Shown: positions 1 through 16,067 of the stretch, in pieces
Layout of the letters: every line of letters starts with the position of its first letter
Numbering within the stretch: position 1 is the first letter of the stretch
From: Meiothermus sp. Pnk-1
Lineage (GTDB): Bacteria; Deinococcota; Deinococci; Deinococcales; Thermaceae
NCBI RefSeq assembly: GCF_003226535.1
Contig: NZ_QKOB01000006.1
Span: 55,136-87,135, forward strand
Length of the DNA stretch: 32,000 bases
Direction: 5' to 3'
Made by a program: the position numbers and the translations under genes
The notes under the pieces: generated by a model
The model's database searches: none
What the model saw: the letters and a program-made list of their open reading frames with translations, nothing else
Told to the model about the DNA's origin: nothing

Positions 1-218
1 TGGCCCGCTACTACGGGCTGGATCGCCGCGAGATCGCCATGATCGGCGACTCCGATAACGACGTGACGGCGCTGCGCTACGCCGGGCTGGGGATCGCTAT
101 GGGCAACGCCGTCGGGGCGGTCAAGGCGGTCTCCGACCACGTCGTAGGGCACGTCCGCGAGAGCGGCTTTGCCGAGGCCATCGAATACATCCTGGAGCAC
201 AACTATGCCGCTCGCTGA
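1..218 (+). CDS. HAD-superfamily Cof-type phosphatase, C-terminal fragment (5' end lies outside the window)
   Basis: Frame 3 reads ...YYGLDRREIAMIGDSDNDVTALRYAGLGIAMGNAVGAVK... to TGA at 216-218. GDSDND matches HAD motif IV (GDxxND). Confidence 0.7.
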   Translation, partial: ARYYGLDRREIAMIGDSDNDVTALRYAGLGIAMGNAVGAVKAVSDHVVGHVRESGFAEAIEYILEHNYAAR

Positions 219-1020: not shown

Positions 1021-1025
1021 GCGCC

Positions 1026-1646: not shown

Positions 1647-1648
1647 GG

Positions 1649-3136
1649 CTACTTCGCTTGAAGGGCTTCCTCGAAGGGGACCAGAAGGGGAAGCTCCACC
1701 CGGAAGAGGCTACCCCCGCCGGGGCGCTCGAGGTAGCGGATGCTCCCGCCGTGGGACTGGGCGATCTGGCGGGCCAGGTACAGCCCCAGCCCCTTGCCCC
1801 CGCCGGCGCGGTGGCTGGAAAAGCGGGTGAAGAGCCGCTCGCGGGCCTCCGGGGGGATGCCCGGACCCCGGTCGGCCACCTCCAGCCGGGCTACTCCTCC
1901 CGCCTCCTCCAGCCGCACCTCGACCTCGCTCTCCGGCGGGGCGAACTTGGCCGCGTTGTCCAGCAGGTTTTGCAACAGCCGGCGCAGGTCGCCTTCCCGG
2001 CCCGGGACCTCCAGGCGTTCTGGCGCCGATACCCGGATCTCCAGGCGCCGCTCGCGCCACAACCCCTCTAGCCGCTCCACGCCCTCGCGCACCAGCCGAG
2101 CCAGATCCACCGGGCGCTTGGGGGGTAGGGCTTCCCCGCTTTCCAGCTGGGCCAGCAAAAGAAGTTCCTCGGCCAACTCGAGCAGGTCCTGGTTGGCCTC
2201 GAGGCCGTTGCGCAGGCTTTTCTTGAACTCCTCCGCAAGCTCCCCGTAAGCGCCCTCCAGGGCCAATCGCAAATTCATGGCGTTGGCCATGAGGGGGGTG
2301 CGCAGGTCGTGGGAGAAGGCGTAGATGAGGTCGCGGATCACCGCGTTGCGCTGGGCCAGCTTCTCCTGCTGCTCCTGCAGCCGGGCGAAGAGCCGGGCCT
2401 TGCCCCAGAGGGCCTGCAAGGGCGGCAGAAGCTCCTGGAGGAAAGCCGCCGCGCCCTCGTGGCGGGGGTGCTCAAAGAGCAGGAGCAGGTCGGGCTGGAG
2501 GTGCCCCAGGAGAAAGCTCCTCCCCGAGAGCAACACCTGGCGCACCGGCTGCGGGCTCGAGGCCGGGGCCTCCTGGGGGGCTTCCCAGCCCTTGGGCGTG
2601 GCGTAGAGCCGCTCCCCCCAGCGCCCGCCCCGCAGGGTTAGGACCGCGGCGGCGTCGGCCTCGAAGAGGTTCTTGAGCACCCGCGCGGCCCGCTCTAAGA
2701 GCTCGGGCGGGGTGAGGGGTCCGGAGAGGTCCTCCACCAGCTGGCGCAGTTGCCGCTCCCGCCGGGCGCGGCGCTCCTCCGCCCGGGCCAGGGCCAGGCG
2801 GCTGGAAGACTCCCCGGCCTTGAGCGAGAGCAGCGCCACCAGCAAAAAGGAGAGCGCCGAGAACAGCCGGTTGAGCACGGCGACGCCCTCGAGGCTTCCC
2901 GCGGCCTTGGCGTTGAGCAGGCCGGCGAGGAGGTTGGCCGCCAGCGCCAGCAGGGTCATGCCCAGGGTCAGGCGGCGAGAGAGGGCCAGCCCGGTGAGGG
3001 CGATGGGCACGTTGTAGAGGATGGCCACCACCAGGGCCTGCGGGGTCAGCACGTCGGCCAGGAACACCCCGCCGATCAAGAGGGCGCTCAACAGCGCCAG
3101 GGCGCGCATCGTAACCAGTATAGCCCCCGGCCTCAT
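1649..3136 (-). CDS. membrane sensor histidine kinase
   Basis: H-box FSHDLRTPL, N-box LLDNAAKF, G1 DRGPGIP and G2 GKGLGLYLA. The N-terminus is hydrophobic with multiple membrane spans. The chosen start is ATG 3134-3136, which overlaps the TGA of the upstream ORF (ATGA). The 79-aa Gly/Pro-rich extension in the ORF track is discounted. Confidence 0.85.
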   Translation of the reverse strand: MRPGAILVTMRALALLSALLIGGVFLADVLTPQALVVAILYNVPIALTGLALSRRLTLGMTLLALAANLLAGLLNAKAAGSLEGVAVLNRLFSALSFLLVALLSLKAGESSSRLALARAEERRARRERQLRQLVEDLSGPLTPPELLERAARVLKNLFEADAAAVLTLRGGRWGERLYATPKGWEAPQEAPASSPQPVRQVLLSGRSFLLGHLQPDLLLLFEHPRHEGAAAFLQELLPPLQALWGKARLFARLQEQQEKLAQRNAVIRDLIYAFSHDLRTPLMANAMNLRLALEGAYGELAEEFKKSLRNGLEANQDLLELAEELLLLAQLESGEALPPKRPVDLARLVREGVERLEGLWRERRLEIRVSAPERLEVPGREGDLRRLLQNLLDNAAKFAPPESEVEVRLEEAGGVARLEVADRGPGIPPEARERLFTRFSSHRAGGGKGLGLYLARQIAQSHGGSIRYLERPGGGSLFRVELPLLVPFEEALQAK

Positions 3137-3696
3137 CCGATCACCACCAGCACGCCCAAAGCCCCCCCGCCGAGCAGGGAGGCCACCCGGCCCGCCCACC
3201 CCCAGCGCAGGCCCCGCCGGGGCATCCCCAGGACCACCAAGCCCTGCCGCCGGGCCTCGCGCAAGAAGGCCTGGCTCGAGTACAGCCCGCCCTGGGCCGC
3301 CACCCCGGCCCTGCGGGCCCCCTCGAGCGGGCCCTCCAGCGACTGCCAGGCCCGCTCCCGGGCCGCCCGCCACAGGCTTGGGGAGAAGTAGGGGCCCTCC
3401 AGGTACCCCGCTTCGGGCGGCCCCTCGACCCAGGCCAAGGTCAGCGGTAGGCCCTGCTGCCGCGCCAGCCAGATCCCCTCCTGCGCCGCCCGGAGGCTGA
3501 GGGGCGGGCCCAACCGGACCAGCACCCCTCGGGCCTCCTGAAAGTCTGCGCCCGGGGCGAGGAGCAACGCGGGCCGTTGCAGGCGAGATACCCGCGCCCA
3601 GGCCGCGAGGCTCCCCCCGGGCAGCAGGGCGATTCCCCGCGCCCGCAGGGCGGGCTCGAGGCGGGGCTCAGGGGGAAGGGCCAGCGCCATAGCCAA
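3133..3696 (-). CDS. hypothetical protein with a C-terminal membrane anchor, translationally coupled to the histidine kinase
   Basis: 187-aa ORF ending in the hydrophobic stretch LLGGGALGVLVVIG. ATGA overlap with the kinase start. No motif recognised. The start is TTG 3696 or ATG 3690. Confidence 0.45.
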   Translation of the reverse strand: MAMALALPPEPRLEPALRARGIALLPGGSLAAWARVSRLQRPALLLAPGADFQEARGVLVRLGPPLSLRAAQEGIWLARQQGLPLTLAWVEGPPEAGYLEGPYFSPSLWRAARERAWQSLEGPLEGARRAGVAAQGGLYSSQAFLREARRQGLVVLGMPRRGLRWGWAGRVASLLGGGALGVLVVIG

Positions 3697-3754
3697 GGTC
3701 TCTGCTCATCCTGCGCGGCTACCGGGGTGTGGCCCAGCGGTCAAACGGCCCCGC

Positions 3755-3778
3755 GGGGTCGGTCACCTGACCGATCCC
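3755..3778. promoter_or_regulatory. palindromic operator-like site in the divergent intergenic region upstream of the kdp operon
   Basis: Perfect TCGGTCA-CC-TGACCGA at 3759-3774. With one mismatch it extends to GGGG...CCC over 3755-3778. It lies between the divergent starts at 3696 (-) and 3843 (+). Confidence 0.35.
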
Positions 3779-3842
3779 GGTCGCCAAACGGCGGCTGCCT
3801 CATGAGGAAGAGGGGGTCTAGGCTGGGCGCTGGAGGTGTGAG

Positions 3843-3935
3843 GTGTCGCCGATAGAGTACGCCGTGGTGGGCTTCATCGCCCTGGCGCTCATGGTCTACT
3901 TGGTTTACGTGATCGTTTCCCCCAAGAGGTTCTGA
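3843..3935 (+). CDS. kdpF: KdpF-like 30-aa membrane peptide (absent from the ORF track)
   Basis: GTG start 5 nt after GGAGG. It translates to [30 protein letters not shown]. The C-terminal YLVYxxxxPxxF resembles E. coli KdpF ...GYLVYALINAEAF. The TGA lies 1 nt before the kdpB ATG. Confidence 0.7.
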
Positions 3936-3936
3936 C

Positions 3937-6000
3937 ATGTCCCTGCCCAAAGCTCAGCGGCCGCGCAACCTGGCGCGCGCAAAAGGCCTGTTTGACCCCG
4001 AGCTGTCTCGCCAGGCCCTGGTGGAGGCCTTCCGCAAGCTGGACCCGCGGCGGATAGTAAACAACCCGGTGATGTTCGTGGTGGAAGTAGGGACGGCGCT
4101 GGTGCTGTACTTCACCCTGCGCTCGGCCCTCACCCGCTCCCCCGACCTCGGCTACCAGGCCGCGGTGTTCCTCTTGCTCCTCCTCACCCTGCTCTTCGCC
4201 AACTTCGCCGAAGGGCTGGCCGAGGCCCGCGGGCGGGCCCAGGCCCAGAGCCTGCGCTCGGCCCGCGCCGACCTCAGGGCCCGGCGGATTACCGAAACCG
4301 GGATGGAGGAGGTGGCCAGTACTGCCTTACGGCGCGGGGACCGGGTACGGGTGAAAGAGGGGGAGTTCATCCCCGCCGACGGCGAGGTGGTGGAGGGATT
4401 GGCGGTGGTGGACGAGTCGGCCATCACGGGAGAGTCGGCGCCGGTAGTGCGCGAAGCGGGCAGCGACTTCAACGGGGTGACCGCGGGGACCCGGGTGCTC
4501 ACCGGTGAGATCGTGGTGGAGGTGACCTCCAACCCCGGCGAGAGCTTTCTCGACCGCATGATCGCCCTGGTCGAGGGGGCCAGCCGGCAAAAGACCCCCA
4601 ACGAGATTGCCCTCACCATCCTGCTGGCCGCGCTCACGGCGGTGTTTCTCATCGTCAGCGCCACGCTGCTTCCCTTCAGCCTCTACGCCGGCCAAGGAGT
4701 GGGCCTTACGACCCTGGTCGCCCTCCTGGTCTGCCTGATCCCCACCACCATCGGCGGGCTGCTCTCGGCCATCGGGATTGCCGGGATGGACCGGGCCCTC
4801 AGGGCCAACGTGGTGGCCAAATCCGGCAAGGCGGTGGAGGTCGCGGGGGATGTGGACACCCTGCTCTTGGACAAAACCGGCACCATCACCCTGGGCGATC
4901 GCCAGGCTACCGAGTTCCACCCGGTGGCCGGGGTCTCCCCGGAGCGGCTGGCCTGGGCGGCCCTGGCGGCCTCGCTCCACGACACCACCCCCGAGGGCAA
5001 GAGCATCGTGCGGCTGGCCCGCGAGAGGGGAGCCCGGGTGGAAGAAGCCCTCGCCGCGGGCTCTAAGGGCCTCGAGTTCACCGCCCAAACCCGCATGTCC
5101 GGCACCGATCTGCCGGGGGGGGTGCGGCTGCGCAAGGGCTCCCCCGACCGCATGATGGAGCTGGTGGCGCAAGCGGGAAACAAGGTCCCTCCCGACCTCA
5201 CCCCCTTGGTGGAAGAGGTCGCCCGACAGGGGGCCACCCCGCTGGTGGTGTGCGAGAACGATCAGGCCCTGGGGGTGGTGGCCCTTTCGGATGTGGTCAA
5301 GCCGGGGATCCGCGAGCGCTTCGCCCAGCTCCGGCGCATGGGCTTACGCACGGTGATGGTCACCGGCGACAACCCCCTCACCGCCCGGGCCATCGCCGAG
5401 GAGGCGGGGGTGGATGAGTTCGTGGCCCAGGCCAAGCCGGAGGACAAGCTCCGGCTCATCCGCGAGGAGCAGGCCAAGGGCCGCTTGGTGGCGATGATGG
5501 GCGACGGCACCAACGACGCCCCGGCGCTGGCCCAGGCCGACGTGGGGCTGGCCATGAACTCCGGTACCCAGGCCGCTAAAGAGGCGGCCAACATGATCGA
5601 CCTGGACTCCGACCCCACCAAGCTATTGGAGGTCGTCGAGATCGGCAAGCAGCTCCTGATCACCCGCGGGGCGCTCACCACCTTCTCCGTGGCCAACGAC
5701 GTGGCCAAGTTTTTCGCCATCATCCCGGCGCTGTTCGTAACCTCCTACCCCGAGCTGCAAAGCCTCAACGTGATGCACCTGGCCACGCCGCAGAGCGCCA
5801 TCCTCTCGGCGGTGATCTTCAACGCGATCATTATCCCCCTGCTCATCCCGCTGGCCCTGCGGGGGGTGCGCTACCAGCCGCTGGGAGCCAATGCGCTGTT
5901 GCAGCGCAACCTGCTGATCTACGGCCTGGGGGGGCTGGTGGCCCCCTTCATAGGGATCAAGCTGATCGACCTGGCCCTGAAGGCGCTGGGATGGGGGTAG
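3937..6000 (+). CDS. kdpB: K+-transporting P-type ATPase subunit B
   Basis: 687 aa with the DKTGTIT phosphorylation motif, [10 protein letters not shown] and [12 protein letters not shown]. The N-terminus is KdpB-like ([20 protein letters not shown]). Confidence 0.95.
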
Positions 6001-6008
6001 GAGGCGGG

Positions 6009-6098
6009 ATGTTAGACCTAGTGTACGTGTTGCTCAGTGTGCTCTGCTTCGGGTTGTTTGTGCTCTACGTCTACGGCATGGACCGGATTCGCGATTAG
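6009..6098 (+). CDS. second small hydrophobic peptide (29 aa) between kdpB and kdpA (absent from the ORF track)
   Basis: AGGAGG lies 4 nt upstream of the ATG. It translates to MLDLVYVLLSVLCFGLFVLYVYGMDRIRD, with a single predicted membrane span. It occupies the position kdpF normally holds immediately upstream of kdpA. Confidence 0.5.
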   Translation: MLDLVYVLLSVLCFGLFVLYVYGMDRIRD

Positions 6099-6107
6099 GA
6101 GGGGTGT

Positions 6108-7811
6108 GTGTTCGCAGCTATCGAACAAATTGCGCTGGTGCTGCTGGTCATGACCGGGCTGGCCGTGGGGGTGGGGGCCTACTTAGCCCGGGTGTTTACC
6201 GCGAAGGGGCACTGGGGGGTGGAGCGGCTAACCTACCGCCTCCTGGGGATTGACCCAGCGGAGGAGATGGATTGGAAACGCTACGCCTTGGCGCTGGTGC
6301 TGAGCGACCTGATCATGATGCTCTCAGGCTACGCCCTGCTGCGCCTGCAGGGGCTGCTGCCCCTCAACCCCGCCCACCTGCCCCCGCAAAGCCCCGACCT
6401 GGCCTTCAATACCGCCGCCTCCTTCGTCACCAACACCAACTGGCAAAGCTACGCCGGGGAGACCAGCCTCTCCAACTTCAGCCAGATGGCGGTGATCACC
6501 TTCCTCATGTTCGTGAGCGCGGCCACCGGCTTTGCCGCCGGGGGGGCCTTCATCCGCGGCCTGAGCCGCACCGGGTTTGGCTGTATCGGGAACTTCTGGG
6601 TGGACTTCACCCGGGTGGTTTACCGGGTGATGCTCCCAGCGTGCTTTGTGCTGGCGCTGGTCTACGTGCAACAGGGGGTGCCGCAAACCCTGCAAGCCGA
6701 CGTAGTAGCGCATACCCTCGAGGGTTCCCCCCGGCGCATCGTCCTGGGGCCGGTGGCCAGCCTCGAGGCCATCAAACACCTGGGCACCAACGGCGGGGGG
6801 TTCTTCAACGCCAACGCCGCCCACCCCTACGAAAACCCCACCCCGCTGACCAACGCCCTGCACATCCTGGCCATGCTGCTCATCCCCTCCGCCCTGACCT
6901 ATACCCTCGGCAGCATGTTGGCTCGCCGGCGGCAGGGCTGGGTTTTCTTCGGCACCTTTTTGGTGATGTTCGTGGGCTTTCTCGCCTTGGTCTATAGCGC
7001 CGAGCAGTCGGGTAACCCCCTCTTGGAGCGGGTTGGAGCGGACCAACGCCTCAGCGAGGGCCAAAGCGGGGGGAACCTGGAGGGCAAGGAGGTGCGCTTT
7101 GGCATCACCCAAACTAGCCTCTTCATCACCACCACCACCGCCGCCACCACCGGCTCGGTGGACGCCATGCACGACTCCCTCACCCCCCTGGGCGGCCTGG
7201 TGCCCCTGGCCCAGATGATGCTCAACGTGGTCTTCGGCGGCAAGGGGGTGGGGCTCATTAACCTGGTGCAGTACGCGATTTTGGCGGTGTTCATCATCGG
7301 GCTCATGGTGGGGCGGACCCCGGAGTTCTTGGGGAAAAAGCTCGAGGCCCGCGAGGTCTCCCTCACCGTGCTGGCCTTGCTGGCCCACCCCGCCAGCATC
7401 CTGATCTTCACCGCGCTGGCCCTGGTCTGGCCGGGGGCCCTGGCCAGCCTGAACAACCCCGGAGCTCACGGGTTCAGCGAAGTGCTCTACGCCTACACCT
7501 CGGGCACGGCCAACAACGGTTCGGCCTTCGCCGGGCTCAACGCCAACACCCCCTTTTACAACACCACTATCGGCTTGGCCATGCTCTTGGGCCGCTTCCT
7601 CACCCTCTTGCCGCTGCTGGCGGTGGCTGGCTCGCTGGCCGCCAAACGCTCGGTACCCCAAACGGCGGGGAGCTTCTCCACCGAGACGGGGTTGTTTGGG
7701 GGCGTGCTGGTGTTGGTGATCCTGATGGTGGGGGGGCTAACCTTCTTCCCCGCTTTGGCCCTAGGGCCGATCGTGGAGCATTTGCAGATGCTCGCCGGGA
7801 AGACCTTTTAG
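6108..7811 (+). CDS. kdpA: K+-transporting ATPase subunit A
   Basis: 567 aa and polytopic. KdpA signatures [10 protein letters not shown] and [12 protein letters not shown] are present. GTG start follows AGGAGGGG. Confidence 0.95.
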
Positions 7812-7822
7812 GAGGTGGTGAA

Positions 7823-8410
7823 ATGCAAGCTTCCCTTCGTACGCTGTTGCGGCCTGCGGCAATGCTAACCCTATTGTTCATGCTGCTCACGGGCCTTGCG
7901 TATCCCCTGGCCACGGCGCTGGTGGCGAACTTCCTCTTTCCCTACCAGGCTGGGGGCAGCCTCATCCGTCAGGGAGGGCGGGTGGTGGGCTCGAGCCTCC
8001 TGGGCCAAGCCTTTACCTCGCCCCGCTACTTCCACCCGCGGCCCAGCGCCACGGCCCCGGAGCCCTACAACGCCGCCCAGAGCGGCGGCAGCAACCTGGG
8101 CCCGACCAACGCCAAGCTCGTCCAGGCGGTACAGGAACGGGTGCGGCAGTACCGGCAGGAAAACGGCCTGGCGGAGGGGGTGCCGGTGCCCGTAGACGCG
8201 GTCACGGCCTCGGGCTCAGGCCTGGACCCGCACATCTCCCTAGCCAATGCCGAGCTGCAAGCCCCGCGGGTGGCGAAGGCCCGAGGGCTGCCTGTGGAGC
8301 GGGTGCGGCAGCTCATCCGTGAGCACACCCAAGGGCGGCAGTTCGGCCTTTTGGGAGAGCCCAGGGTCAACGTGCTGGAGCTCAACCTGGCCCTGGACGG
8401 GGTACGCTAG
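7823..8410 (+). CDS. kdpC: K+-transporting ATPase subunit C
   Basis: 195 aa with an N-terminal membrane span, GSNLGPTN and [10 protein letters not shown] motifs, and an AGGAGG RBS. Confidence 0.9.
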
Positions 8411-8415
8411 GAGCC

Positions 8416-9528
8416 GTGGAACCGGCAGCCCCCGACCCAGAGCAGCTGCTCGAGGCCATCCTGAAAAGCGGCCGGGGCCGCCACAAGATCTACGTGGGGG
8501 CCGCCGCCGGGGTGGGCAAGACCTACCGGGCCTTGCAGGAGCTGCGCGAGCGCCTGGAGGCCGGGGTGGACGCGGTGGTGGGCTACCTGGAGACCCACGG
8601 GCGCCCCGACACCGCCCGCATGGCCGAGGGGTTGCCGGTCTTTCCGCGCAAACAGGTGGAGTACAAGGGGGTGGTCCTGCCGGAGATGGACCTGGAGGGG
8701 CTGCTCGCGCGCCGCCCGGCGCTGGTGCTGGTGGACGAGCTGGCCCATACCAACGCCCCCGGCTCCAAGAACGCCAAGCGCTACCAGGACGTGGAGGAAC
8801 TCTTGCAGGCGGGGATCAGCGTGATCTCCACCATGAACATCCAGCACCTGGAGTCCTTGAACGACCTGGTGGCCCGCCTCACCGGGGTGCGGGTGAAGGA
8901 GCGGGTCCCCGACCGGGTGCTCCTGGAGGCCGACGAGGTGATCCTGGTGGACGTGACCCCGGAGGTGCTCCAGGAGCGGCTCCGGGCGGGCAAGATCTAC
9001 CCCAAGGCCAAGATCGAGCAGGCCCTGGCCAACTTCTTCACCGCGGAGAACCTGGCCGTGCTGCGCGAGCTGGCCCTGCGCAGCGTGGCCGACAAGGTGG
9101 AGGAAGACGCCTCGGTGGGGGAGGACTCCCCGGCCCTCAAGGAGCGCATCGCGGTGGCGGTGACCCCCAGCCCCAAAGACGCCCTGCTCATCCGCCGCGG
9201 GGCCCGCATGGCCCAGCGGATGCGCGGCGAGCTGCACGTGGTGCACGTGAGAAACCGCCGCCTCTCGCGGGAGGAGGAGCGGGCGCTGGACAGCCACCGC
9301 ATCATCGCCGAGAGCCTCGAGGGGCGCTTTCATCGCCTCGAGGGCCGCGACGTGGCCCGGGCCCTGGCGGAGTTTGCCAAGGAATACGGCATCACCCAGC
9401 TGGTCTTGGGGGAGAACTCCAACCCCACTTGGCGCGACTTCTTCCGCATCTCCATCATCCAGCGGCTGATCTACCTCACCCACGATATCGACATCCATAT
9501 CATGGACCGGCGCCCCGAGGAATCCTAA
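8416..9528 (+). CDS. kdpD: kinase-less KdpD (KdpD N-terminal sensor domain plus Usp domain only)
   Basis: 370 aa. Walker-like GAAAGVGKTY, LVLVDELAHTNAPGS and ISTMNIQHLESLND match the KdpD N-terminal domain, followed by a Usp-like segment. There are no membrane spans and no HisKA or HATPase_c region. GTG start follows AGGAG. Confidence 0.85.
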   Translation: MEPAAPDPEQLLEAILKSGRGRHKIYVGAAAGVGKTYRALQELRERLEAGVDAVVGYLETHGRPDTARMAEGLPVFPRKQVEYKGVVLPEMDLEGLLARRPALVLVDELAHTNAPGSKNAKRYQDVEELLQAGISVISTMNIQHLESLNDLVARLTGVRVKERVPDRVLLEADEVILVDVTPEVLQERLRAGKIYPKAKIEQALANFFTAENLAVLRELALRSVADKVEEDASVGEDSPALKERIAVAVTPSPKDALLIRRGARMAQRMRGELHVVHVRNRRLSREEERALDSHRIIAESLEGRFHRLEGRDVARALAEFAKEYGITQLVLGENSNPTWRDFFRISIIQRLIYLTHDIDIHIMDRRPEES

Positions 9529-9560
9529 CGGCAGCCCGGCGACAAAGGGGATGCGATAGA

Positions 9561-9585
9561 CATCCTAAGTTATTTGTCAAGCCTC
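9561..9585. repeat. left att-like direct repeat (attL candidate)
   Basis: CATCCTAAGTTATTTGTCAAGCCTC aligns with 16036-16059 (CATCCTGAGAAATGTGTAAGACTC) at 19 of 24 columns with one 1-nt gap. Confidence 0.6.
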
Positions 9586-9594
9586 ATTTACAAC

Positions 9595-10503
9595 TCACCT
9601 AACACACACAGCCCACGCCGCGCGTGCTAAACGATGCGCCACTGCAACCAGGGCTAGCTTTTTAGGCTTGCCCGAGTCCACAAGGCGGCGATACAAAGCA
9701 GCTTGTACGGAGTCGGTACGGGTCGCGGCTGTCGCTGCGAGGTAGTAGCTAGCGCGGAGCATGGGCGGGCCAATGCGGGAGATACGGGCGCTAGCGTCCA
9801 TCTCTCCAGATTGGTAGATGCGCGGAGTAAGCCCGGTGTAAGCCGCGTACGCCCTCGCCGAGTGGAAGCGCCGCAGATCGCCCGAGTAGGCCAAGAGCTT
9901 TAGCGCGAGGGTGGGGCCAATGCCCGGCAGGGTTTGCAGGGCTGAAACCCACGAAGCAGCTAGTGGATATGCCGCAACAATGGCTCGTGCCTCAGCGTAC
10001 AGGGCAGCGCGTAACGACTGAATCGAATCAGGCACAGACAACGCAAACTCATGCACATGTGGGTGGGCGTAGCGCCAAGCGTGCAAGCGGTTGAGAGAGG
10101 CTGTGCGCTGCGTGTTCAGACCCTCGGCAAATCTGACCAGGAGCGAGGCCAGGTACAACGCCTCAGGCAACGGCTCATAAGGTGTGAGATCGGCTCGATA
10201 TTGAGCCAGAAAGCGGGCGAGTAGGCGAGCGTCCGCCTTATCGGTCTTATTGCGGGTGAGGAGTGATCTAGCGTAAGCCCGAACCTGCAAAGGGTTGACA
10301 ACGTAAACTGCGAACCCGGCCCGGTGTAAGGCGTAGGCCAAAGGCCGATAGTAGACCCCGGTAGCCTCCATCAGGACAGCCGCATCAGCAGGCAATCGTG
10401 AAACTAGCGCAGCTATGCCGTCATACGTGTTTGGAAACTGTAGCAACTCATCTGCTATAGCTACGTCCAAGCGAGAGCGGGAGATGTCAACGCCAACAAA
10501 CAT
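9595..10503 (-). CDS. IS110-family transposase (DEDD RuvC-like domain plus C-terminal Tnp domain)
   Basis: 302 aa. MFVGVDIS (Asp), VLMEATGVYY (Glu), NKTDKADARLLA (Asp, Asp), C-terminal LPGIGPTLALKLL and YQSGE (conserved Ser). Confidence 0.9.
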   Translation of the reverse strand: MFVGVDISRSRLDVAIADELLQFPNTYDGIAALVSRLPADAAVLMEATGVYYRPLAYALHRAGFAVYVVNPLQVRAYARSLLTRNKTDKADARLLARFLAQYRADLTPYEPLPEALYLASLLVRFAEGLNTQRTASLNRLHAWRYAHPHVHEFALSVPDSIQSLRAALYAEARAIVAAYPLAASWVSALQTLPGIGPTLALKLLAYSGDLRRFHSARAYAAYTGLTPRIYQSGEMDASARISRIGPPMLRASYYLAATAATRTDSVQAALYRRLVDSGKPKKLALVAVAHRLARAAWAVCVR

Positions 10504-10554
10504 AAGTAGGGCGCGGGAGCCCTACGGCACTCTTACACGCGACCAAAAAGGCCA

Positions 10555-10563
10555 ACATCCTAA
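10555..10563. repeat. internal copy of the att core (ACATCCTAA)
   Basis: Exact 9-mer shared with 9560-9568. It starts 52 nt upstream of the transposase ATG. AGGCCAA precedes it and recurs at 10602-10608. Confidence 0.5.
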
Positions 10564-10606
10564 ACGCCCATAGGCTAGGCCACGCTATCGCACGACCACG
10601 CAGGCC

Positions 10607-10617
10607 AAGACTCTTGA
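10607..10617. repeat. 11-mer identical to the host flank next to asnS
   Basis: AAGACTCTTGA at 10607-10617 equals 16053-16063 exactly and is in the same orientation. Confidence 0.5.
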
Positions 10618-10642
10618 CGACCAAACCCGCGCCCAGCACAGA

Positions 10643-10873
10643 CTAACGCCTGTATCCCCTAGGACGCAACTTGGGTTGATAGGGGCAGGGGCCAGAATAG
10701 CGACAGATGCGCCGCCCCTCACGCAGAGCAGCCACCTCAAGGGTATTCAGAGGCTCACGGCAACGAGTACAGCGAACACGGGTATCAGGTTGCAGGGAGC
10801 GCCCAGGGCCAGCTAGAGAGCGAATCATCCAGCCTATCCAGAGGATCACCAGCAGGAGCAGGAGCAGGCTCAC
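10643..10873 (-). CDS. small membrane protein (pXI-like anchor?) with a Cys-rich tail, overlapping the zot 3' end in the +1 frame
   Basis: GTG-initiated 76-aa ORF. It has an N-terminal membrane span SLLLLLLVILWIGWMI followed by CxxC...Cx5C. It overlaps zot by 89 nt. No clear RBS. Confidence 0.4.
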   Translation of the reverse strand: MSLLLLLLVILWIGWMIRSLAGPGRSLQPDTRVRCTRCREPLNTLEVAALREGRRICRYSGPCPYQPKLRPRGYRR

Positions 10874-11714
10874 ACGGAGATTCTAACCGCTCACGCAGCA
10901 GATCATGCGGTTGTTTGCCCTCACGGTAGGCACTCGCTAGGTCGGAGATGGAGAGATGAGGCATCCCATCCCGAGGCCCCGGAGCATCACGACGGCCCCG
11001 GAGCTTGGATGCGTCCCAGGCTAGGCCCATCCGGTCAAAGATGGCCCGCTTTTTCGGGTCTAGCTCACGCTGGAGCCGGACTATAGGCGGCTCAAAAATC
11101 GCGTATGTGTCGTAACACGCCGCCGCCATCGGATCGAGGGCCACAACGTCATTACGCGCTACGCCCTCGAAGATGCCCTTGGCCTGACGTTGCATCATGC
11201 CGATGGACTCATCCATGATGGACGTGTAGCGCAGAAGTTTCCGCCCGCGCACCCAGGGATACGTAATCACGCGGAGCCAGAACGGAGCCGGACGCGCCCA
11301 GAAGACGAAGGCTACCAGATCGCGCACAATCGCATCCACCGAGCCGTAGCGCTGTGTAGCTAGCAGCACGTCCACGCCTGTCTTGCGATGCTGGCTCCAG
11401 AACGCGATGACCTCGACCGGGATTAGGTCAAACTGACGCGAGGGAAGCCACATATGGGCCTCGTCAAACAGTAGCAGGCCATCATGGACGTTGAGCAGTT
11501 CGTTATAGTCCCGTATCTCCCGGATACTATCAGCCCTCAGAACCGCTTCCCGATGATCCAACTTGGCGCGGAAACGAAGCCAGTAATAGACATTTTCCCT
11601 AATAAAGCCGAAATTGGCCCATACGGTACGCCCCCGAGCCAAGGCGTGAAGGCCGCGATGGACGAGCATGTAACTCTTTCCAGAGCCGGGAATGCCGATG
11701 TACGCCTCGATCAT
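10785..11714 (-). CDS. zot: Zot / pI-like inovirus assembly ATPase
   Basis: Walker A GIPGSGKS at the N-terminus, Walker B LLLFDEAH and QHRKTGVDVLLATQ (Zot-family pattern). ATGA overlap with the upstream gene. No membrane span in this frame. Confidence 0.85.
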   Translation of the reverse strand: MIEAYIGIPGSGKSYMLVHRGLHALARGRTVWANFGFIRENVYYWLRFRAKLDHREAVLRADSIREIRDYNELLNVHDGLLLFDEAHMWLPSRQFDLIPVEVIAFWSQHRKTGVDVLLATQRYGSVDAIVRDLVAFVFWARPAPFWLRVITYPWVRGRKLLRYTSIMDESIGMMQRQAKGIFEGVARNDVVALDPMAAACYDTYAIFEPPIVRLQRELDPKKRAIFDRMGLAWDASKLRGRRDAPGPRDGMPHLSISDLASAYREGKQPHDLLRERLESPCEPAPAPAGDPLDRLDDSLSSWPWALPAT

Positions 11715-12139
11715 CTACCCCCCCTGATAAAGGTGATGGCTCGCCAGAGTGCCATGAGCCCGTAAAATCCCGCCCAGGCCGAGCCGAGCGTAAGGGCCTC
11801 ACTGATCGGCAGTATTTGGTTAGCCGTGTTGAAGGCCCCTATAGCAGTAGAGGCCCAACCAGGCGGGTCGGGGGGCATAGCCGGGAGCAGGCCAACTAGG
11901 ATACTGAGGAAGCCAGTAACCAGCTTGACCACGCCCGCGATAAGCCAGCCGATGAGCCCTAGGCCCCATTCCAACAACTGATGCAGGAGCCCTAGACCCC
12001 AGTTCAAGACGGCAAGGACAAGCCCCCAGACCCAGCCCCAGACCGTTTGAACGATGCCAACGAACCAGCCCGTCAGGGCGGAGAACGTGCCCTGGAACCA
12101 ATCGAGGATTGAGCGGAGTGCGTTTAGGATTATCTGCAT
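11711..12139 (-). CDS. pVI-like polytopic minor coat/assembly protein
   Basis: 142 aa, Trp/Gly/Leu-rich with several membrane spans. It lies immediately upstream of zot and is coupled to it, the position held by gene VI or DUF2523-type genes in inoviruses. Confidence 0.6.
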   Translation of the reverse strand: MQIILNALRSILDWFQGTFSALTGWFVGIVQTVWGWVWGLVLAVLNWGLGLLHQLLEWGLGLIGWLIAGVVKLVTGFLSILVGLLPAMPPDPPGWASTAIGAFNTANQILPISEALTLGSAWAGFYGLMALWRAITFIRGGR

Positions 12140-12152
12140 ATCTCCCCCCTAC

Positions 12153-12357
12153 TCACATGCTCATTCGCCCGCTGCGCGAGAGTGTACGGTGAGGCCCCGG
12201 CCTACGCGCAAGGGTCCGCTTCGCCGCGCCCGCATGTCCAAACCCCGGCTTCCTGCGTGCAGTAAACGTGCGTGATGTGGTGCAGCGTGCGCGCCCTTGC
12301 GCTACGGCCACCCCACCGGATAAGGATTGTTGCAGCGGGCGAAAAAATAGCATGTGA
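12153..12357. repeat. long imperfect inverted repeat filling the pIII-like / pVI-like intergenic region
   Basis: TCACATGCT (12153-61) pairs with AGCATGTGA (12349-57). TCGCCCGCTGC (12165-75) pairs with GCAGCGGGCGA (12332-42). GCGCAAGGG (12206-14) pairs with CCCTTGCGC (12294-302). The arm spacings are similar. Confidence 0.6.
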
Positions 12358-13812
12358 TTAGCGCTGTACATCCAACCCCCGGCGCACGATGGTAAATCCG
12401 AACGTCAGCAAGAGCCCGCCCAGCATGAAGGGGCGTAGTTGCGTTGCGGCTTGCCAGACGGGATTGCCGCAGATGTTGACGGTAGCCGACCACTGACCGA
12501 TTGTTAGCTGAGGAGCCGGACAGCCCCCGCTATCGCTGGTGGACGGAGTACGGAGCCAGCGCACGACACCAAACGGAAACTTGTCCATAGCTTGCTGCTT
12601 GAGTTGCTCTATGGACTCTCGCATAGACTGCATAGCCTGATCCCACGGCGTTTGCTGTAGCTGCGGAGCCTGGAACTGAGGCAATGTGGGATCATTGGGC
12701 TTTTGCAGACCCGGCAGGGAAGGAGTGCCCGGAGGCCCCGGCCACGTCAGATCATCCTTAGGTTGCTCATTCGTACACTTCGAGGCTGGATCACGCGGAT
12801 CCGAGCCGCAGCGTAACTCTTGATCATCCGGAAAGCCGTCCCCGTCGGAATCCGTGCCGGGATCTTTCCCAGGCTTAGAGTTAGGATCATAAGGATCCGT
12901 CCCCGCCTGCTTTTCCTCCTGATTCGTGTATCCGTCCCCGTCGTCGTCCCGATTCGGATCAGGATGGGAGTTAGGATCATTGATCCCGTCAGGCCAAGGG
13001 CGCTGTTTCTCCATCCAGTCAGGCCAGCCGTCGCCGTCGGTATCCACTGACTTATCGGTATACGGATTATCCGTCCATTGATTCGGATTAGGCACAGGAT
13101 CGAGGCGCACCCCAGGATAGGGATTAGACGGAGAGCCGGGCGGCGTGTCCTGAATGTAGCGAGCGACAGCCGCTTTGACTCCCTCAGCCGCGTCGGGATG
13201 CGACTGCAAAAACTCCGGGAGCGTCTCTGGCGGATGCTTAGGCATCGTTGACTTTTCGACGCGCTCGACTCCATCAGGATAATGCAGCTTAGCGTTGCGT
13301 TGCCACTCGTAGCGATAGCCATATTGGGACTTCAGATACTGCTCGCACTGCAACAAGAGTTGCTCCTGAGTCCCGCCGGGGCCGCGAAACGAATGAGTAT
13401 AGGGCGGATCAGTGGAGCGCACGTAAGGGGTTGCCCCCAGAACAGAACAGCGAACCTCGCCCATTTGCCAATCATAATCAGGAGGGATGTACTGAACTCC
13501 GACTATGACGGCTTCCCAGTCATAGAGTAAATGTGACGCCCACGCGTCCAACGACGTCCCAGTTTGCTGCTTGAGGGACTCGTAAAAATAGTTAAGGGCT
13601 GTATAAATAAGCGTAGATCCTAGGATTATTGCGCCGCCCCAGCGCACATAGCGCCCGAACGTTGCCTGTTTAGCGAACTGATTGTTACTCCACTGCAAAA
13701 TCTCGTTATACGTCATCCCCTGCACAGTAGTCCTAACAACATCCTGCACAGGAGCCGCGAACGAAAAGGCCCCGGCGACCAGGGCCAGGGCCAAGAATCG
13801 CCGGAGCCGCAT
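12358..13812 (-). CDS. pIII-like adsorption/minor coat protein with thrombospondin type-3 (Ca-binding) repeats
   Basis: The start is moved to ATG 13812, giving signal peptide MRLRRFLALALVAGAFSFA. Three DxDxDGxxDxxE repeats are present (DTDGDGWPDWME, DDDGDGYTNQEE, DSDGDGFPDDQE). A C-terminal hydrophobic anchor (FMLGGLLLTFGFTIV) is followed by RRG. It sits directly after the coat gene. Confidence 0.65.
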   Translation of the reverse strand: MRLRRFLALALVAGAFSFAAPVQDVVRTTVQGMTYNEILQWSNNQFAKQATFGRYVRWGGAIILGSTLIYTALNYFYESLKQQTGTSLDAWASHLLYDWEAVIVGVQYIPPDYDWQMGEVRCSVLGATPYVRSTDPPYTHSFRGPGGTQEQLLLQCEQYLKSQYGYRYEWQRNAKLHYPDGVERVEKSTMPKHPPETLPEFLQSHPDAAEGVKAAVARYIQDTPPGSPSNPYPGVRLDPVPNPNQWTDNPYTDKSVDTDGDGWPDWMEKQRPWPDGINDPNSHPDPNRDDDGDGYTNQEEKQAGTDPYDPNSKPGKDPGTDSDGDGFPDDQELRCGSDPRDPASKCTNEQPKDDLTWPGPPGTPSLPGLQKPNDPTLPQFQAPQLQQTPWDQAMQSMRESIEQLKQQAMDKFPFGVVRWLRTPSTSDSGGCPAPQLTIGQWSATVNICGNPVWQAATQLRPFMLGGLLLTFGFTIVRRGLDVQR

Positions 13813-13826
13813 AGAAGCCCCCCGGA

Positions 13827-14048
13827 TTAGCCCTTGAGGAACTTCTTGGCGTAGCGCCAAGCCGCGCTGAGGCCGATAGTGAGCGCGAGCACGCCCACGC
13901 CAGCAGCAGCGATGCCGCCGATGTAGGTCATGACGCCCGTAGCGACCTGCCCAGCATTGAAGCTGGCATCTTCAGCAAACGCCCCAGCTAGCACGAGAGG
14001 AGCAGCCAAGGCAACCGAACGACCGACAAACACGCGCAGTTTCTCCAT
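13827..14048 (-). CDS. inovirus major coat protein (pVIII-like)
   Basis: 73 aa. Signal peptide ...LVLAGAFA | EDASFNAGQ, then an acidic mature N-terminus, a hydrophobic core and a basic C-terminus (RYAKKFLKG). GGAGGTG RBS. Confidence 0.8.
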   Translation of the reverse strand: MEKLRVFVGRSVALAAPLVLAGAFAEDASFNAGQVATGVMTYIGGIAAAGVGVLALTIGLSAAWRYAKKFLKG

Positions 14049-14080
14049 AGAACACCTCCATTGCCCACGGGCGATGCCCG

Positions 14081-14182
14081 TTAGAGCCTACGTAACACGG
14101 AGCGCAGGACCGAGGCCACCAGGCCAGCCCCTAGCCCCCACCAGAAGGCCTCAGCGATAAAGCGCCAGTCACCCGCAGTCAT
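14081..14182 (-). CDS. 33-aa hydrophobic peptide (pVII/pIX-like minor coat candidate; absent from the ORF track)
   Basis: MTAGDWRFIAEAFWWGLGAGLVASVLRSVLRRL. ATGA overlap with the upstream mini-ORF. Confidence 0.5.
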   Translation of the reverse strand: MTAGDWRFIAEAFWWGLGAGLVASVLRSVLRRL

Positions 14183-14283
14183 ACACGCCTAAACAGATTG
14201 CCGCCGTAGCGATACGCGGCTAAAAACGCGTAGGGAGCCGTGACCAACGCGAGAACCTTGAGGAACCAATCGAAAGGCTCCAT
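14179..14283 (-). CDS. 34-aa hydrophobic peptide (pVII/pIX-like minor coat candidate; absent from the ORF track)
   Basis: MEPFDWFLKVLALVTAPYAFLAAYRYGGNLFRRV. TAATG overlap with the upstream mini-ORF. Confidence 0.5.
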   Translation of the reverse strand: MEPFDWFLKVLALVTAPYAFLAAYRYGGNLFRRV

Positions 14284-14375
14284 TAGAAATCCCCCGCGAG
14301 AAGTCCCGCAATCATGCCGAGTCCGAAGGCCCAGACCTTGAAGCACTCGATCATGAAGACGGGATCAAGGGTCAT
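14283..14375 (-). CDS. 30-aa hydrophobic peptide (pVII/pIX-like minor coat candidate; absent from the ORF track)
   Basis: MTLDPVFMIECFKVWAFGLGMIAGLLAGDF. TAATG overlap with the stop of the 96-aa ORF. Confidence 0.5.
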   Translation of the reverse strand: MTLDPVFMIECFKVWAFGLGMIAGLLAGDF

Positions 14376-14665
14376 TAGGCTTTCTCCTTTACCGGAGCAA
14401 GTGGAGCCACAAACCGTGCCACCGTGACGAATTGTCGCGCGCTGTTTTTCTCGCGGAACCCATCCCTGACGCGCAAATCAATTTGCAGGTCATAGAGGCC
14501 CGGAAACGTGGGCATAGTCGCCACTACATCAGGATCCGCGTCAAGTTCAAGCACGTTCATCCCGCGGAACTCCGCATCCGTGGGCGTAGTGGCTACTAAA
14601 ACCTTGCCAAACCTGCGCCCATCCTTAGCCGTCCTAGCGCTTGCTCCAAGTACCATTAGGGTCAT
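14375..14665 (-). CDS. putative ssDNA-binding protein (gene V-like), assigned by position and size only
   Basis: 96-aa ORF with an AGGAGGA RBS, directly downstream of rep as in Ff phages. No motif recognised. Confidence 0.35.
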   Translation of the reverse strand: MTLMVLGASARTAKDGRRFGKVLVATTPTDAEFRGMNVLELDADPDVVATMPTFPGLYDLQIDLRVRDGFREKNSARQFVTVARFVAPLAPVKEKA

Positions 14666-14710
14666 ATATCCTCCTATATCGCGTTAGAAGTGCCGATAGG
14701 CACGCGATAC

Positions 14711-15394
14711 CTACACAACAGCCCCCGCGTAGCGATGGAACGCCCGAGAGTAGGACTCCCGGAACCGCGCCTTATCCAGTACCGGCAAATCCTCGGGAGC
14801 CAAACCGACTAAATAGCGAACACGCCGGAGCCACGCCAGGAGCACAGACGGTGTAGGGGCGTGATGATGCAGGCCGAGCGACGCAGCAGCGGAAACGATG
14901 CAACCGATGGCCTGAGTCAACAACTGAGGAACACTAGCCAACGGCGAGCGAGCACAACGGACTACCTGAGCAGTCCCCGAGGAGTCGGGAGCGTCAAAGG
15001 CAGACAACACAAGTCGCCAGAGAGGATCAAACGGACGATTGCGGATTGTTTGAGTGTCCGAATCCTCACGCAGAGAGAGCCAAGAGCCCGCCAAATAGCG
15101 CCAGATAGCCGGGAGATGTTCCGCGAGGGTGTACCAGTTGCGCAGATCGCCCGCCCCTACATCCATAGTTGACAGAGCATCCGCCCTAATCTGGAACTCG
15201 ACGCGGATCACGTGCCCGCTGGGGTTGCCGTAGCCCGCAAGAGTGAGCTTAGCGCCGTAATCCGTGCGCGCCTGTATCGTCTTCGAGTAGATACGTGCTA
15301 GCAAATCGCCGGAGCCGAAACGAAACCCGGACCAGTTAGGCCCCCGGTAGTGAACCTCAACAGGGTGTACCTCATAGGCGGGTACCTCGTGCAT
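14711..15394 (-). CDS. rolling-circle replication initiator (Rep_trans-like), C-terminal part of a split gene
   Basis: Contains GDLLARIYSKT, resembling the catalytic-Tyr R-I-Y-x-K motif of pT181 RepC / RstA-type initiators. Deleting one 11-bp repeat copy joins it to 15298-16038. Confidence 0.6.
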   Translation of the reverse strand: MHEVPAYEVHPVEVHYRGPNWSGFRFGSGDLLARIYSKTIQARTDYGAKLTLAGYGNPSGHVIRVEFQIRADALSTMDVGAGDLRNWYTLAEHLPAIWRYLAGSWLSLREDSDTQTIRNRPFDPLWRLVLSAFDAPDSSGTAQVVRCARSPLASVPQLLTQAIGCIVSAAASLGLHHHAPTPSVLLAWLRRVRYLVGLAPEDLPVLDKARFRESYSRAFHRYAGAVV

Positions 15395-16038
15395 AGCGAC
15401 CCCCGTGTTACCCCCGTGTTACCCGTAAGGGGGTCGCCGTGGCTGCCCCCACGGCTGGCCGCTGGCGCGCCCAGCGCGTGGGAGCCATCCAGGTAGACCG
15501 ACCGCGAGCGAGCCCGCGAAACGAAACGCCCTAGGTCATCCAGGCTGAGGGGTGTATCCACCTCGACATCCGCAAACAAGTCAATACGCGACACTTGGAC
15601 GCGCTCAGGCTCAACTCCGACAAGATAGCTGAGGGTATCGGAAAACATAGCAACCACAGCCATAGGGTCACGGGCGCAAGCCGCCATGTATCGACCCGAT
15701 ACTTCCACGTAGGCGTGTACCTGTCCGGGTTTACAGGTAGTGGGCCGAGGCTGAGTGAGGGAGATCGAGAACATGCCCCCTTGAAACATCAACATCCAGC
15801 GGAACTTTCGCCCAGGCCGTACCTGTGCCACCTCGTAGGCGCAGCGCTCGTCATCATCCCCTAGAGGATTCCAAAGCCACATGTAATCGTGAATCCCGAG
15901 AAAGTGAGCATCCCCCTCTTCCCGGTACTCGTCTAGCGCCGCATCCAATCGCGCGGTGAAGTCCTCGGGAAGGCGGTAGTTTTGGCCCCAGGAAAGCCAG
16001 AAGATAAAGGTGTCTGTTCCGCTGGCTAATAGCTTCAT
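15298..16038 (-). CDS. rolling-circle replication initiator (Rep_trans-like), N-terminal part of a split gene
   Basis: Contains VSRIDLFADVEV (R-x-D-L-A-x-D-type motif). After the 11-bp duplication the frame runs on for about 40 out-of-frame codons. Confidence 0.6.
   Translation of the reverse strand: MKLLASGTDTFIFWLSWGQNYRLPEDFTARLDAALDEYREEGDAHFLGIHDYMWLWNPLGDDDERCAYEVAQVRPGRKFRWMLMFQGGMFSISLTQPRPTTCKPGQVHAYVEVSGRYMAACARDPMAVVAMFSDTLSYLVGVEPERVQVSRIDLFADVEVDTPLSLDDLGRFVSRARSRSVYLDGSHALGAPAASRGGSHGDPLTGNTGVTRGSLCTRYPPMRYTLLRFTTGGLTGPGFVSAPAIC
15400..15421. repeat. perfect 11-bp tandem duplication (CCCCCGTGTTA x2) inside rep
   Basis: Read directly at 15400-15410 and 15411-15421. It lies in the loop of the hairpin GCGACCCCC (15396-404) / GGGGGTCGC (15429-437). 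Confidence 0.9.
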
Positions 16039-16059
16039 CCTGAGAAATGTGTAAGACTC
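16036..16059. repeat. right att-like direct repeat (attR candidate)
   Basis: CATCCTGAGAAATGTGTAAGACTC. Its first three bases are the complement of the rep ATG. Confidence 0.6.
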
Positions 16060-16067
16060 TTGAAGGT

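Follow-up and report, generated by a model that had tools for sequence, protein, structure and literature searches.

In the bridge RNA of the insertion sequence (IS) IS621, the left guide has the same sequence as the top strand and the right guide the complementary one, with the core included in each (Durrant et al. 2024, PMC11208160; PDB 8WT6). According to Kolesnik et al. 2024 (PMC11437467), the Thermus filamentous phages Zuza8, Zuza27 and phiOH16 carry an IS110-family transposase, and in Thermus proviruses this gene and the endonuclease gene occupy opposite ends; drawing on Neisseria Nf as an analogue, they proposed that these phages probably integrate with the IS110 transposase. The term 'bridge RNA' does not occur in that report, which defines no att sites for Zuza8, Zuza27 or phiOH16, and within an incomplete coverage of the literature we have found no work linking bridge RNAs with filamentous phages. 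Here we analyse a 32,000-nt stretch of the genome of Meiothermus sp. Pnk-1 (contig NZ_QKOB01000006.1, positions 55,136 to 87,135 of the forward strand), referred to below as the window. Its positions 9560-16053 very probably represent a filamentous prophage, related to the Thermus phages of the Thomixvirus type, whose integration module is a domesticated IS110 bridge-recombination system. A preliminary description of this DNA had presented it as an independent example of integration by an IS110-type protein. Kolesnik et al. 2024 (PMC11437467) had already proposed that role for its Thermus sister phages; what is added here, on strong comparative evidence, is a putative RNA guide, exact att sites that an empty site confirms, and a split-promoter layout.

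The window prophage shares its gene order with phiOH16, Zuza8 and Zuza27 (Paulinoviridae, Thomixvirus); in the structural genes the nucleotide identity is about 70%, and the recombinases are homologous (57-60% identity). As in the Thermus proviruses, the endonuclease gene and the transposase gene stand at opposite ends; the host genus, Meiothermus, and the target site differ. The recombinase gene (9595..10503, minus strand) encodes a 302-aa, IS621-like DEDD/Ser bridge recombinase of the IS110 family (WP_110529688.1). Its product matches the Pfam families DEDD_Tnp_IS110 (PF01548, 2.6e-23) and Transposase_20 (PF02371, 9.9e-23), the PHROG family phrog_2199, annotated as 'transposase' (1.9e-65), and, over its whole length, the solved recombinases IS621 (3e-36) and ISCro4 (1.9e-34). 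Residues D6, E46, D88, D91, and S232 occupy invariant columns in an alignment of four phage recombinases, and the same five catalytic residues lie within blocks that are conserved with IS621 (VGVD/IGID, EATG, KTDxxDAR, and SG). The protein has both the N-terminal RuvC-like DEDD domain and the C-terminal Tnp domain with the catalytic Ser that are found in the IS110 group, and it is predicted to be catalytically active. These results bear out the preliminary description, which had seen a full-length IS110-family protein with the DEDD residues and the C-terminal Ser, co-oriented with the phage genes (the whole inovirus gene set is on the minus strand) and the sole recombinase of the island; no other island open reading frame (ORF) matches a recombinase family in Pfam or PHROG.

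Directly upstream of the recombinase gene, as expected for the IS110 group, lies a structured RNA with two internal loops, a candidate bridge RNA of 126 nt (10509..10634, minus strand). The pattern GGYCGT-(about 9 nt)-TGGCC-(5 nt)-GGTCG-(about 9 nt)-TGGCC occurs twice in the stretch. A consensus fold, derived from an alignment of 18 non-identical homologues, consists of a long-range closing stem (GGGCGCGGG/CCCGCGCCC) and two stem-loops, each with an internal loop of 10+10 nt, between which a short connecting stem lies. Stem pairs are kept in 95% of the alignment cells, compared with 40-54% when the partners are slid by 1-3 columns; the minimum free energy z-score is -3.2; and the closing stem shows compensatory changes between lineages (GGGCGCGGG/CCCGCGCCC, GGGGCAGG/CCTGCCCC, GGGGATAG/CTATCCCC, and GGGGTGAG/CTCACCCC). 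Among the 18 homologues the stems are nearly invariant and the internal-loop segments are the most variable columns, and an AG that is complementary to a CT core is invariant in both 3' guides. In the window, the target-binding loop (loop 1, 10578..10622) has the left target guide (LTG) TCAAGAGTCT on its 5' side (10608-10617) and the right target guide (RTG) GCGATAGCG on its 3' side (10583-10591; reverse complement CG-CT-ATCGC). The donor-binding loop (loop 2, 10526..10568) has the left donor guide (LDG) TTTAGGATGT on its 5' side (10555-10564) and the right donor guide (RDG) GTGTAAGAG on its 3' side (10530-10538; reverse complement CT-CT-TACAC). The RNA is predicted to be transcribed and to bind the recombinase. 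A fixed register of the left target guide relative to the stem was considered and discarded, since the CT stands 0 to 3 nt from the GGCC stem, depending on the lineage.

All four guides match target and donor sequences that flank a shared core dinucleotide, and these sequences lie at the two junctions of the island. Read on the phage (minus) strand, the gII-side junction is CCTTCAAGAGT-CT-TACACATTTCTCAGGATG, in which ATG is the gII start codon, and the recombinase-side junction is GGCTTGACAAATAACTTAGGATGT-CT-ATCGCATCCCC. At the gII side, the left half of the bacterial attachment site attB (left target, LT, TCAAGAGT; 16056..16063) is host DNA 4 nt upstream of the asnS ATG at 16068 and equals the LTG, TCAAGAGT-CT. 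It is joined through the core CT (16054..16055) to TACACA (16048..16053), which holds the right half of the phage attachment site attP (right donor, RD, TACAC), as given by the reverse complement of the RDG, and is also a -10-like hexamer upstream of gII. At the recombinase side, the left half of attP (left donor, LD, TTAGGATGT; 9560..9568), which comprises the last phage bases beyond the recombinase gene and matches the LDG, is joined through the core CT (9558..9559) to the right half of attB (right target, RT, ATCGC; 9553..9557), host DNA of the kdpD-asnS spacer that is given by the reverse complement of the RTG. The un-recombined sites are then attB TCAAGAGT-CT-ATCGC, read by loop 1, and attP TTAGGATGT-CT-TACAC, read by loop 2; each prophage junction contains one half specified by each loop, which is the pattern expected of recombination products. 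No intact attP or attB is found elsewhere in the window, and no RD sequence adjoins the bridge RNA. The free circular phage phiOH16 shows the donor side before recombination: its loop 2 (GTGGTGTAGT / TTGTAAGA) matches an intact attP, GTAGTGTAGT-CT-TACAA, between the recombinase gene and gII.

The target side is likewise seen before recombination. The exact AsnRS protein, used as a query, led to the empty site in another Meiothermus assembly (GCA_004152925.1) and a Logan assembly. In both, kdpD adjoins asnS across a 43-nt spacer that reads ...GGGGATGCGAT-AG-ACTCTTGAAGGTATG, as predicted; the empty site corresponds to window positions 1..9559 joined to 16056 onward, and both halves of attB are present in it. 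(A metagenome search for the predicted 22-nt empty site gave 0 matches.) Since 6 kb of flank on either side is 100% identical, the insertion is precise, recent, and 6,496 bp in length, that is, the 6,494 bp of phage DNA together with one 2-bp copy of the core, which would close as a 6,496-bp circle. The preliminary description had the recombinase gene enclosed by the same direct repeats as the phage genes, and this proves to be mistaken. Insertion has duplicated no more than the 2-bp core CT (plus-strand AG; 9558-9559 and 16054-16055), with GTCT at both junctions, and the look-alike 9-mers CTTAGGATG (9561-9569) and CTCAGGATG (16036-16044) are both phage DNA. Its proposal that the IS110 protein is the phage integrase gains support, given that the donor guides spell the two ends of the 6.5-kb prophage and the target guides spell the empty site of a sister strain; the integration site would be set by an RNA guide, which that description had not noticed. 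Two other assignments were rejected. A crossover at ATA[A/C]-CT-T, beside the CATCCT[A/G]AG look-alikes, would cross guide halves between the loops, whereas the core GT-CT fits every half and agrees with the empty site; and the asnS start given in the ORF list, an ATG at 16047, is phage DNA, the true start being 16068.

These sites also bear on whether host enzymes could have done the work. Many inoviruses integrate through host XerC/XerD at a dif-like site, as CTX-type phages do, and the action of the IS110 protein here is read from sequence only; under such a scheme, or with some other host recombinase, the IS110 protein would be irrelevant. The insertion site, however, is the 43-nt kdpD-asnS spacer, attP and attB share only the 2 bp CT, the phage encodes its own recombinase, both att sites are spelled by the loops of the RNA, and in other prophages a different site goes with different target guides. 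On these grounds, with no search aimed at a dif site, integration by host recombinases is hardly credible.

The last of these points comes from related prophages, in which the loop-1 guides vary with the chromosomal site. In L087 the left side reads GGATAGT-CT and the right target half is CT-AACGC; in L090 the left guide TGTCATT-CT faces the flank TGCCATT (one G·U pair) and the right target half is CT-AGGGG. The right target halves are CT-ATGGAC in L093 (Thermus sp. PS18), which has extra nucleotides at its left junction, CT-AAGGC in L117, whose contig ends at the core on the left, and CT-AAACC in L095, where the left side is likewise a contig end. On the left, L103 reads TAAGTATA-CT, L099 reads GGGGTAAG-CT, and L097, L098 and L105 read CCGGTAAG-CT. 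Over 9 prophages, the right target halves match their cognate guides at 44 of 45 positions; with non-cognate right guides the mean is 2.3 of 5 and none of 117 comparisons is perfect. Left target halves match cognate guides at 90% of positions and non-cognate guides at 45%. In a permutation test, 0 of 100,000 permutations reached either total, right or left. Even in L122, which belongs to a lineage with 45% identity, the guide rule is obeyed on both sides. In addition, the donor loop is nearly unchanged among the window prophage, L087 (recombinase 82% identical), and L090 (76%), while their target loops and chromosomal sites are unrelated; the same donor loop with unrelated target loops is, as far as such comparison can tell, natural retargeting. 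The target of L103, predicted and observed (about 2940-2975), is a perfect 20-nt palindrome, CGCCTAAGTATACTTAGGCG.

This covariation speaks against a reading in which the IS110 integrase recognises its sites as a protein, in the manner of Piv, and the upstream structure is only a 5' leader or regulatory element. Such recognition was the implicit model for the Nf phages before 2024, and the strong conservation of the RNA stems is something that a regulatory leader could also show. Yet the variable loop segments track the host flanks and the phage ends base by base, in the strand sense of IS621, and L104 and L116, whose homologous host sites are one base apart (AGGGC / AGGAC), have RTGs that differ correspondingly (GCCCT / GTCCT). 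A leader would have no reason to copy a chromosomal flank, and we therefore regard recognition by protein alone as improbable.

The module is, moreover, tied to phage genomes. The phages phiOH16, Zuza8 and Zuza27, whose circular genomes are free, each have a homologous recombinase gene (57-60% identity) flanked by gIV/Zot and gII. A protein search gave 41 relatives, and every locus retrieved has the order Rep ... Zot, non-coding stretch, recombinase; the retrieved loci come from Calidithermus timidus, Thermus sp. PS18, T. albus, metagenome-assembled genomes of Meiothermus and Thermus, hot-spring metagenomes, and one lineage with 45% identity. For 32 of these relatives (45-99% identity), at least 600 nt of upstream context was available. 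A Zot homologue was detected by tblastn in 28 of the 32 loci, and the other 4 are of the 45% lineage, 3 of them with a weak Pfam Zot match. There is no stand-alone IS copy among the 32. All 32 relatives with context are tied to an inovirus morphogenesis gene, and the many phage-free copies of the gene that, in the preliminary description, would have spoken for an ordinary IS do not appear: the exact protein is recorded on one contig only in the protein cluster table (an exact-protein look-up in the contig index did not return it). A scan of IMG/VR gave two loci only. With the four-phage recombinase alignment as the query, a scan of genome contigs gave only distant IS110 genes (<=35% identity), none of them from Thermaceae, and these were used solely as examples of an ordinary IS of the family.

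It might still be supposed that a prophage with some other means of integration was hit by chance, in its interior or at its edge, by an ordinary IS110-family IS. Elements of this family are frequent in Thermaceae, where they are often single-gene, and the recombinase gene is at the very edge of the island. Such a chance landing is very hard to reconcile with the same gene at the same position in three free phage genomes, with homologues that are Zot-linked wherever context exists and never stand alone, with the record of the exact protein on one contig, and with donor guides that match sequences 6.5 kb apart in an island where nothing like RD adjoins the RNA. In a genuine IS of the family (L006/L007, 1,276 bp), unlike the prophage, the -10 and the bridge RNA stand directly at the left end. 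An IS in the strict sense is a short element (about 1-2 kb) with transposition functions only and usually present in several copies; the mobile unit here is 6,496 bp with a full phage genome, which is no such IS, and the prophage is a phage-sized bridge-recombinase element rather than a stray IS.

Comparison with IS621 and with this genuine IS indicates how such an element is laid out. With IS621 the prophage shares the recombinase fold, the catalytic motifs, the CT core, an RNA upstream of the gene in which the target loop precedes the donor loop, the strand sense of the guides, and a right-end TTGACA about 17 nt from a -10-like hexamer across the core. It differs in that the mobile unit is a 6.5-kb virus rather than an IS of 1.2-1.6 kb, that about 5.4 kb of phage genes separate the donor core from the bridge RNA, that the putative junction promoter precedes gII rather than the RNA, which has a TAnnnT element of its own, that the RNA has a long-range closing stem in place of a 5' stem-loop, and that it is present in a single copy per genome. 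The genuine IS, which is multicopy (35% identity), ends ...CGCTTGACAAACAATACCGTAT-CT and begins with TATAAT followed at once by the RNA. The right end of the prophage is canonical for IS110 (recombinase stop codon, TTGACA, LD, core), while its 'left end' is split: RD and the -10 come before gII, and about 5.4 kb of phage genes then precede the RNA with its TAnnnT box. The record of phiOH3 (L130, 5662-5688 plus 1-318), which lacks the transposase, is an 845-bp deletion derivative. The donor loop is gone, as is the greater part of the recombinase gene; phiOH3 keeps attP, the final ~150 nt of that gene, and a target loop in which it does not differ from phiOH16.

In elements of the IS110 group, a promoter is restored when the two ends are joined in the circular form. 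The crossover of the window prophage lies within a promoter-like element. A -35-like TTGACA (9575..9580, minus strand) stands between the recombinase stop codon and LD, in the same place in all relatives examined, and the rebuilt attP of the window reads TTGACA-17 nt-TACACA, upstream of gII and not of the RNA. In phiOH16 a promoter scan calls TTGACA-18-TACAAT, which matches at 11 of 12 positions and spans the core. The core lies between TTGACA and a TAC-type hexamer in every relative, so that integration always separates the two. This geometry is kept in both orientations of attP relative to the recombinase gene, that is, where it is direct (the window, phiOH16, and the Meiothermus and Calidithermus phages) and, in contrast to these, where it is inverted (Zuza8, L002 921-968; Zuza27, L003 912-969; L115 at both junctions; and most of the Thermus metagenome prophages). 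Such a split promoter would control the expression of gII. Most of the target sites precede a host start codon by 0-15 nt, as in CT-ATGGAC, CT-AAGGCATG, CT-AGGGCCATG, and asnS (L087, L093, L104, L116, L117, and the window, 16056-16070), and the TTGACA that faces outward from the recombinase end could combine with host DNA into hybrid promoters.

Taken together, these comparisons suggest the following process. The module would comprise the recombinase gene (9595-10503), the 126-nt bridge RNA (10509-10634), and an attP just downstream of the gene, placed within the spacer of the promoter-like TTGACA-17 nt-TACACA that precedes gII. In the circular replicative form, the donor loop would pair with attP, TTAGGATGT-CT-TACAC, and the target loop with the chromosomal TCAAGAGT-CT-ATCGC, 4 nt upstream of the asnS start codon. 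The recombinase would then exchange strands at the CT core, so that the whole 6.5-kb phage is inserted and only CT is repeated. Integration would part the two hexamers, so that TTGACA stays at the recombinase end and the -10 stays beside gII. Excision, for which the same bridge RNA would presumably serve, would rebuild the promoter element.

Several observations weigh against this account. Its support is wholly comparative. An Rfam scan of positions 9000-17000 at E<=1 returned no match, so the RNA assignment rests on architecture and covariation and not on a curated model. Some junctions deviate: the left junction of L093 has 6 extra nucleotides between LT-CT and RD (AGTACA-CT-TTAGGT-TACAAG); in L115 the left guide is matched at only 5 of 8 positions and the right guide at 4 of 5; two distal positions are mismatched in L102; and L096 is without one core base. 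The -10 hexamer TACACA is weak, and a promoter scan of the prophage ends gave no full sigma-70 match; with such a -10, and with no promoter found in the prophage state, the splitting of a promoter is something that we infer. Lastly, gII is frameshifted, and the prophage may no longer replicate or excise productively. As to the junctions, in L101 (about 1830-1890) a tandem duplication of the right end of the prophage (GGGGCTTGACAAGTGxGAGTTGTGAG, twice) adjoins the host junction; this deviation and those of L093, L115, L102 and L096 may be off-target events, later mutations, or assembly errors. The extra TTAGGT of L093 (about 1660-1704) resembles LD sequence, and the extra nucleotides may be the trace of an imprecise or two-step event.

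The frameshift in gII is due to an 11-bp tandem duplication (GGGTAACACGG twice; 15403-15424, minus strand). Positions 1-204 and 217-396 of phrog_33635 fall on two separate ORFs, and tblastn likewise finds two frames; L087 and L090 have a single copy of the duplicated unit in the alignment and a single Rep of 428-431 aa. The duplication may be a genuine mutation or may stem from an error in assembly. In the former case, no full-length Rep can be made by the prophage, and the intact replication initiator of an inovirus is missing from it. It may be asked whether the module is a relic, a dead prophage fixed as a remnant from which nothing moves now. The broken gII gene speaks for this. Against it, the flanks are 100% identical to those of the empty-site strain, which implies a very recent insertion, and neither the recombinase ORF nor the RNA stems nor any of the four guides is damaged, the guides still matching their sites perfectly. 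A relic therefore seems unlikely to us, if far from negligible, and it would concern the present activity of the element and not its nature.

Two features near the ends of the bridge RNA concern expression. A -10-like hexamer, TAGTCT (10640..10645, minus strand), stands 5 nt upstream of the closing stem. The TAnnnT box to which it belongs is invariant in 18 of 18 homologues, at 5-9 nt upstream of the stem, and is the probable promoter of the bridge RNA; a consensus promoter scan called no full promoter at this position. At the 3' end of the RNA, a terminator-like hairpin with a U-rich tract (10506-10525, minus strand; L001 144-162) overlaps the recombinase start codon and competes with the long-range closing stem. 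Expression of the recombinase may depend on read-through of this hairpin.

A similar arrangement is seen in a second group of inoviruses. Among phage records searched by tblastn, 12 saliva inoviruses and 2 lemur 'Dulem' viruses carry genes of the IS110 type, at about 31% identity. A TspB-like gene, together with a gene order of Zot, non-coding stretch, transposase, Rep, marks the saliva inovirus OR148970 as Nf/MDA-like. Five saliva inoviruses were examined (L125-L129: OR148970, OR148979, OR148976, OR148974, and PP511607), for the donor-side match only; in these Nf/MDA-like genomes an attP-like site stands between the IS110 gene and Rep. In all 5, a segment of 8-10 nt located 41-52 nt upstream of the transposase start equals the sequence 5' of a downstream core (nearly so in L126); the core hexamer is CT-TATATATT in 4 of the 5 and CT-TGTATATT in L126, and the upstream segment differs between genomes. 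The donor of L126, ACAGTAT-CT-TGTAT, is one that we take to be equal to the IS621 donor. This suggests that the saliva inoviruses use the same bridge-RNA design. As in the window, the Neisseria Nf/MDA-type prophages, which have a Piv/IS110-type transposase, carry the IS110-family gene between Zot and Rep; the protein identity is about 31%, the structural genes are not evidently related, and the hosts and the sequence of the RNA scaffold are different.

We lean slightly towards a broader proposal, in which bridge-RNA-guided recombination is a general lysogeny mechanism of at least two unrelated inovirus groups (Thomixvirus-like phages of Thermaceae and Nf/MDA-like oral phages of the Neisseria type), the phage being an IS110 element whose left end was opened for the viral genome and whose crossover, inside the promoter of the replication module, switches that promoter off and on. 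If this is true, closely related phages would retarget by mutating about 14 nt of RNA, and naturally thermostable bridge recombinases that carry cargo of 5-7 kb would be at hand. The layout of the saliva inoviruses hints that the integration specificity of meningococcal MDA/Nf may be RNA-encoded. The proposal of IS110 integration that arose from the Neisseria work, and was repeated for Thermus in 2024, becomes testable at single-base resolution, with attP, attB, core, and guides defined. Bridge recombination that would move a whole virus in nature, from an RNA gene 5.4 kb from the donor core, bears on the evolution of such systems and on their cargo size and tolerance of layout, and the promoter splitting suggests a simple lysogeny switch. 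The host organisms grow at 55-75 °C, and their recombinases could serve in tool development.

The remaining genes of the prophage, all on the minus strand like the recombinase gene, are those of an inovirus. The island, which was delimited by the empty site, blastn, and GC (guanine plus cytosine) content, has a GC fraction of 0.588, compared with 0.675 and 0.64 in its flanks. Its neighbours are a kdpD-type gene (8416-9528, plus strand) on one side and asnS (plus strand, from the ATG at 16068) on the other, and blastn aligns it at ~70% nucleotide identity with the Thermus filamentous phages phiOH16, OH3, Zuza8, and Zuza27. The gII replication endonuclease gene, split into two ORFs (14711..16038; phrog_33635 and tblastn), is followed by genes that were assigned by PHROG: a gV-like single-stranded DNA (ssDNA)-binding protein (14375..14665), a small coat-like gene (14179..14346), gVIII (13827..14048), a gIII-like adsorption protein with TSP3 repeats (12358..13860), and a gVI-like gene (11711..12139). 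Next comes the Zot/pI-type assembly ATPase (10785..11714; Pfam Zot 7e-14, phrog_20922 4.6e-137), which is 'IV' in the phiOH16 annotation. The virion and ssDNA-binding genes (11711..14665) are ordered as in phiOH16 and Zuza8. With a Zot ATPase, coat, adsorption, ssDNA-binding, and Rep genes in conserved order on one strand, collinear with those two phages, the island belongs with the inoviruses.

Between the Zot gene and the recombinase gene there are 281 nt without a large ORF. The interval from Zot to the bridge RNA contains a small Cys-rich ORF (10643..10873, minus strand; CxxC...C...CPY, zinc-ribbon-like), noted from conservation by eye, which has no match in Pfam or PHROG. Its frame and Cys pattern are kept, again by eye, in L087, L090, Zuza8, and Zuza27, where it is unannotated, and it is absent from phiOH16. 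The product might be a regulator or a directionality factor. The stop codon of this ORF overlaps the TAnnnT box of the bridge RNA.

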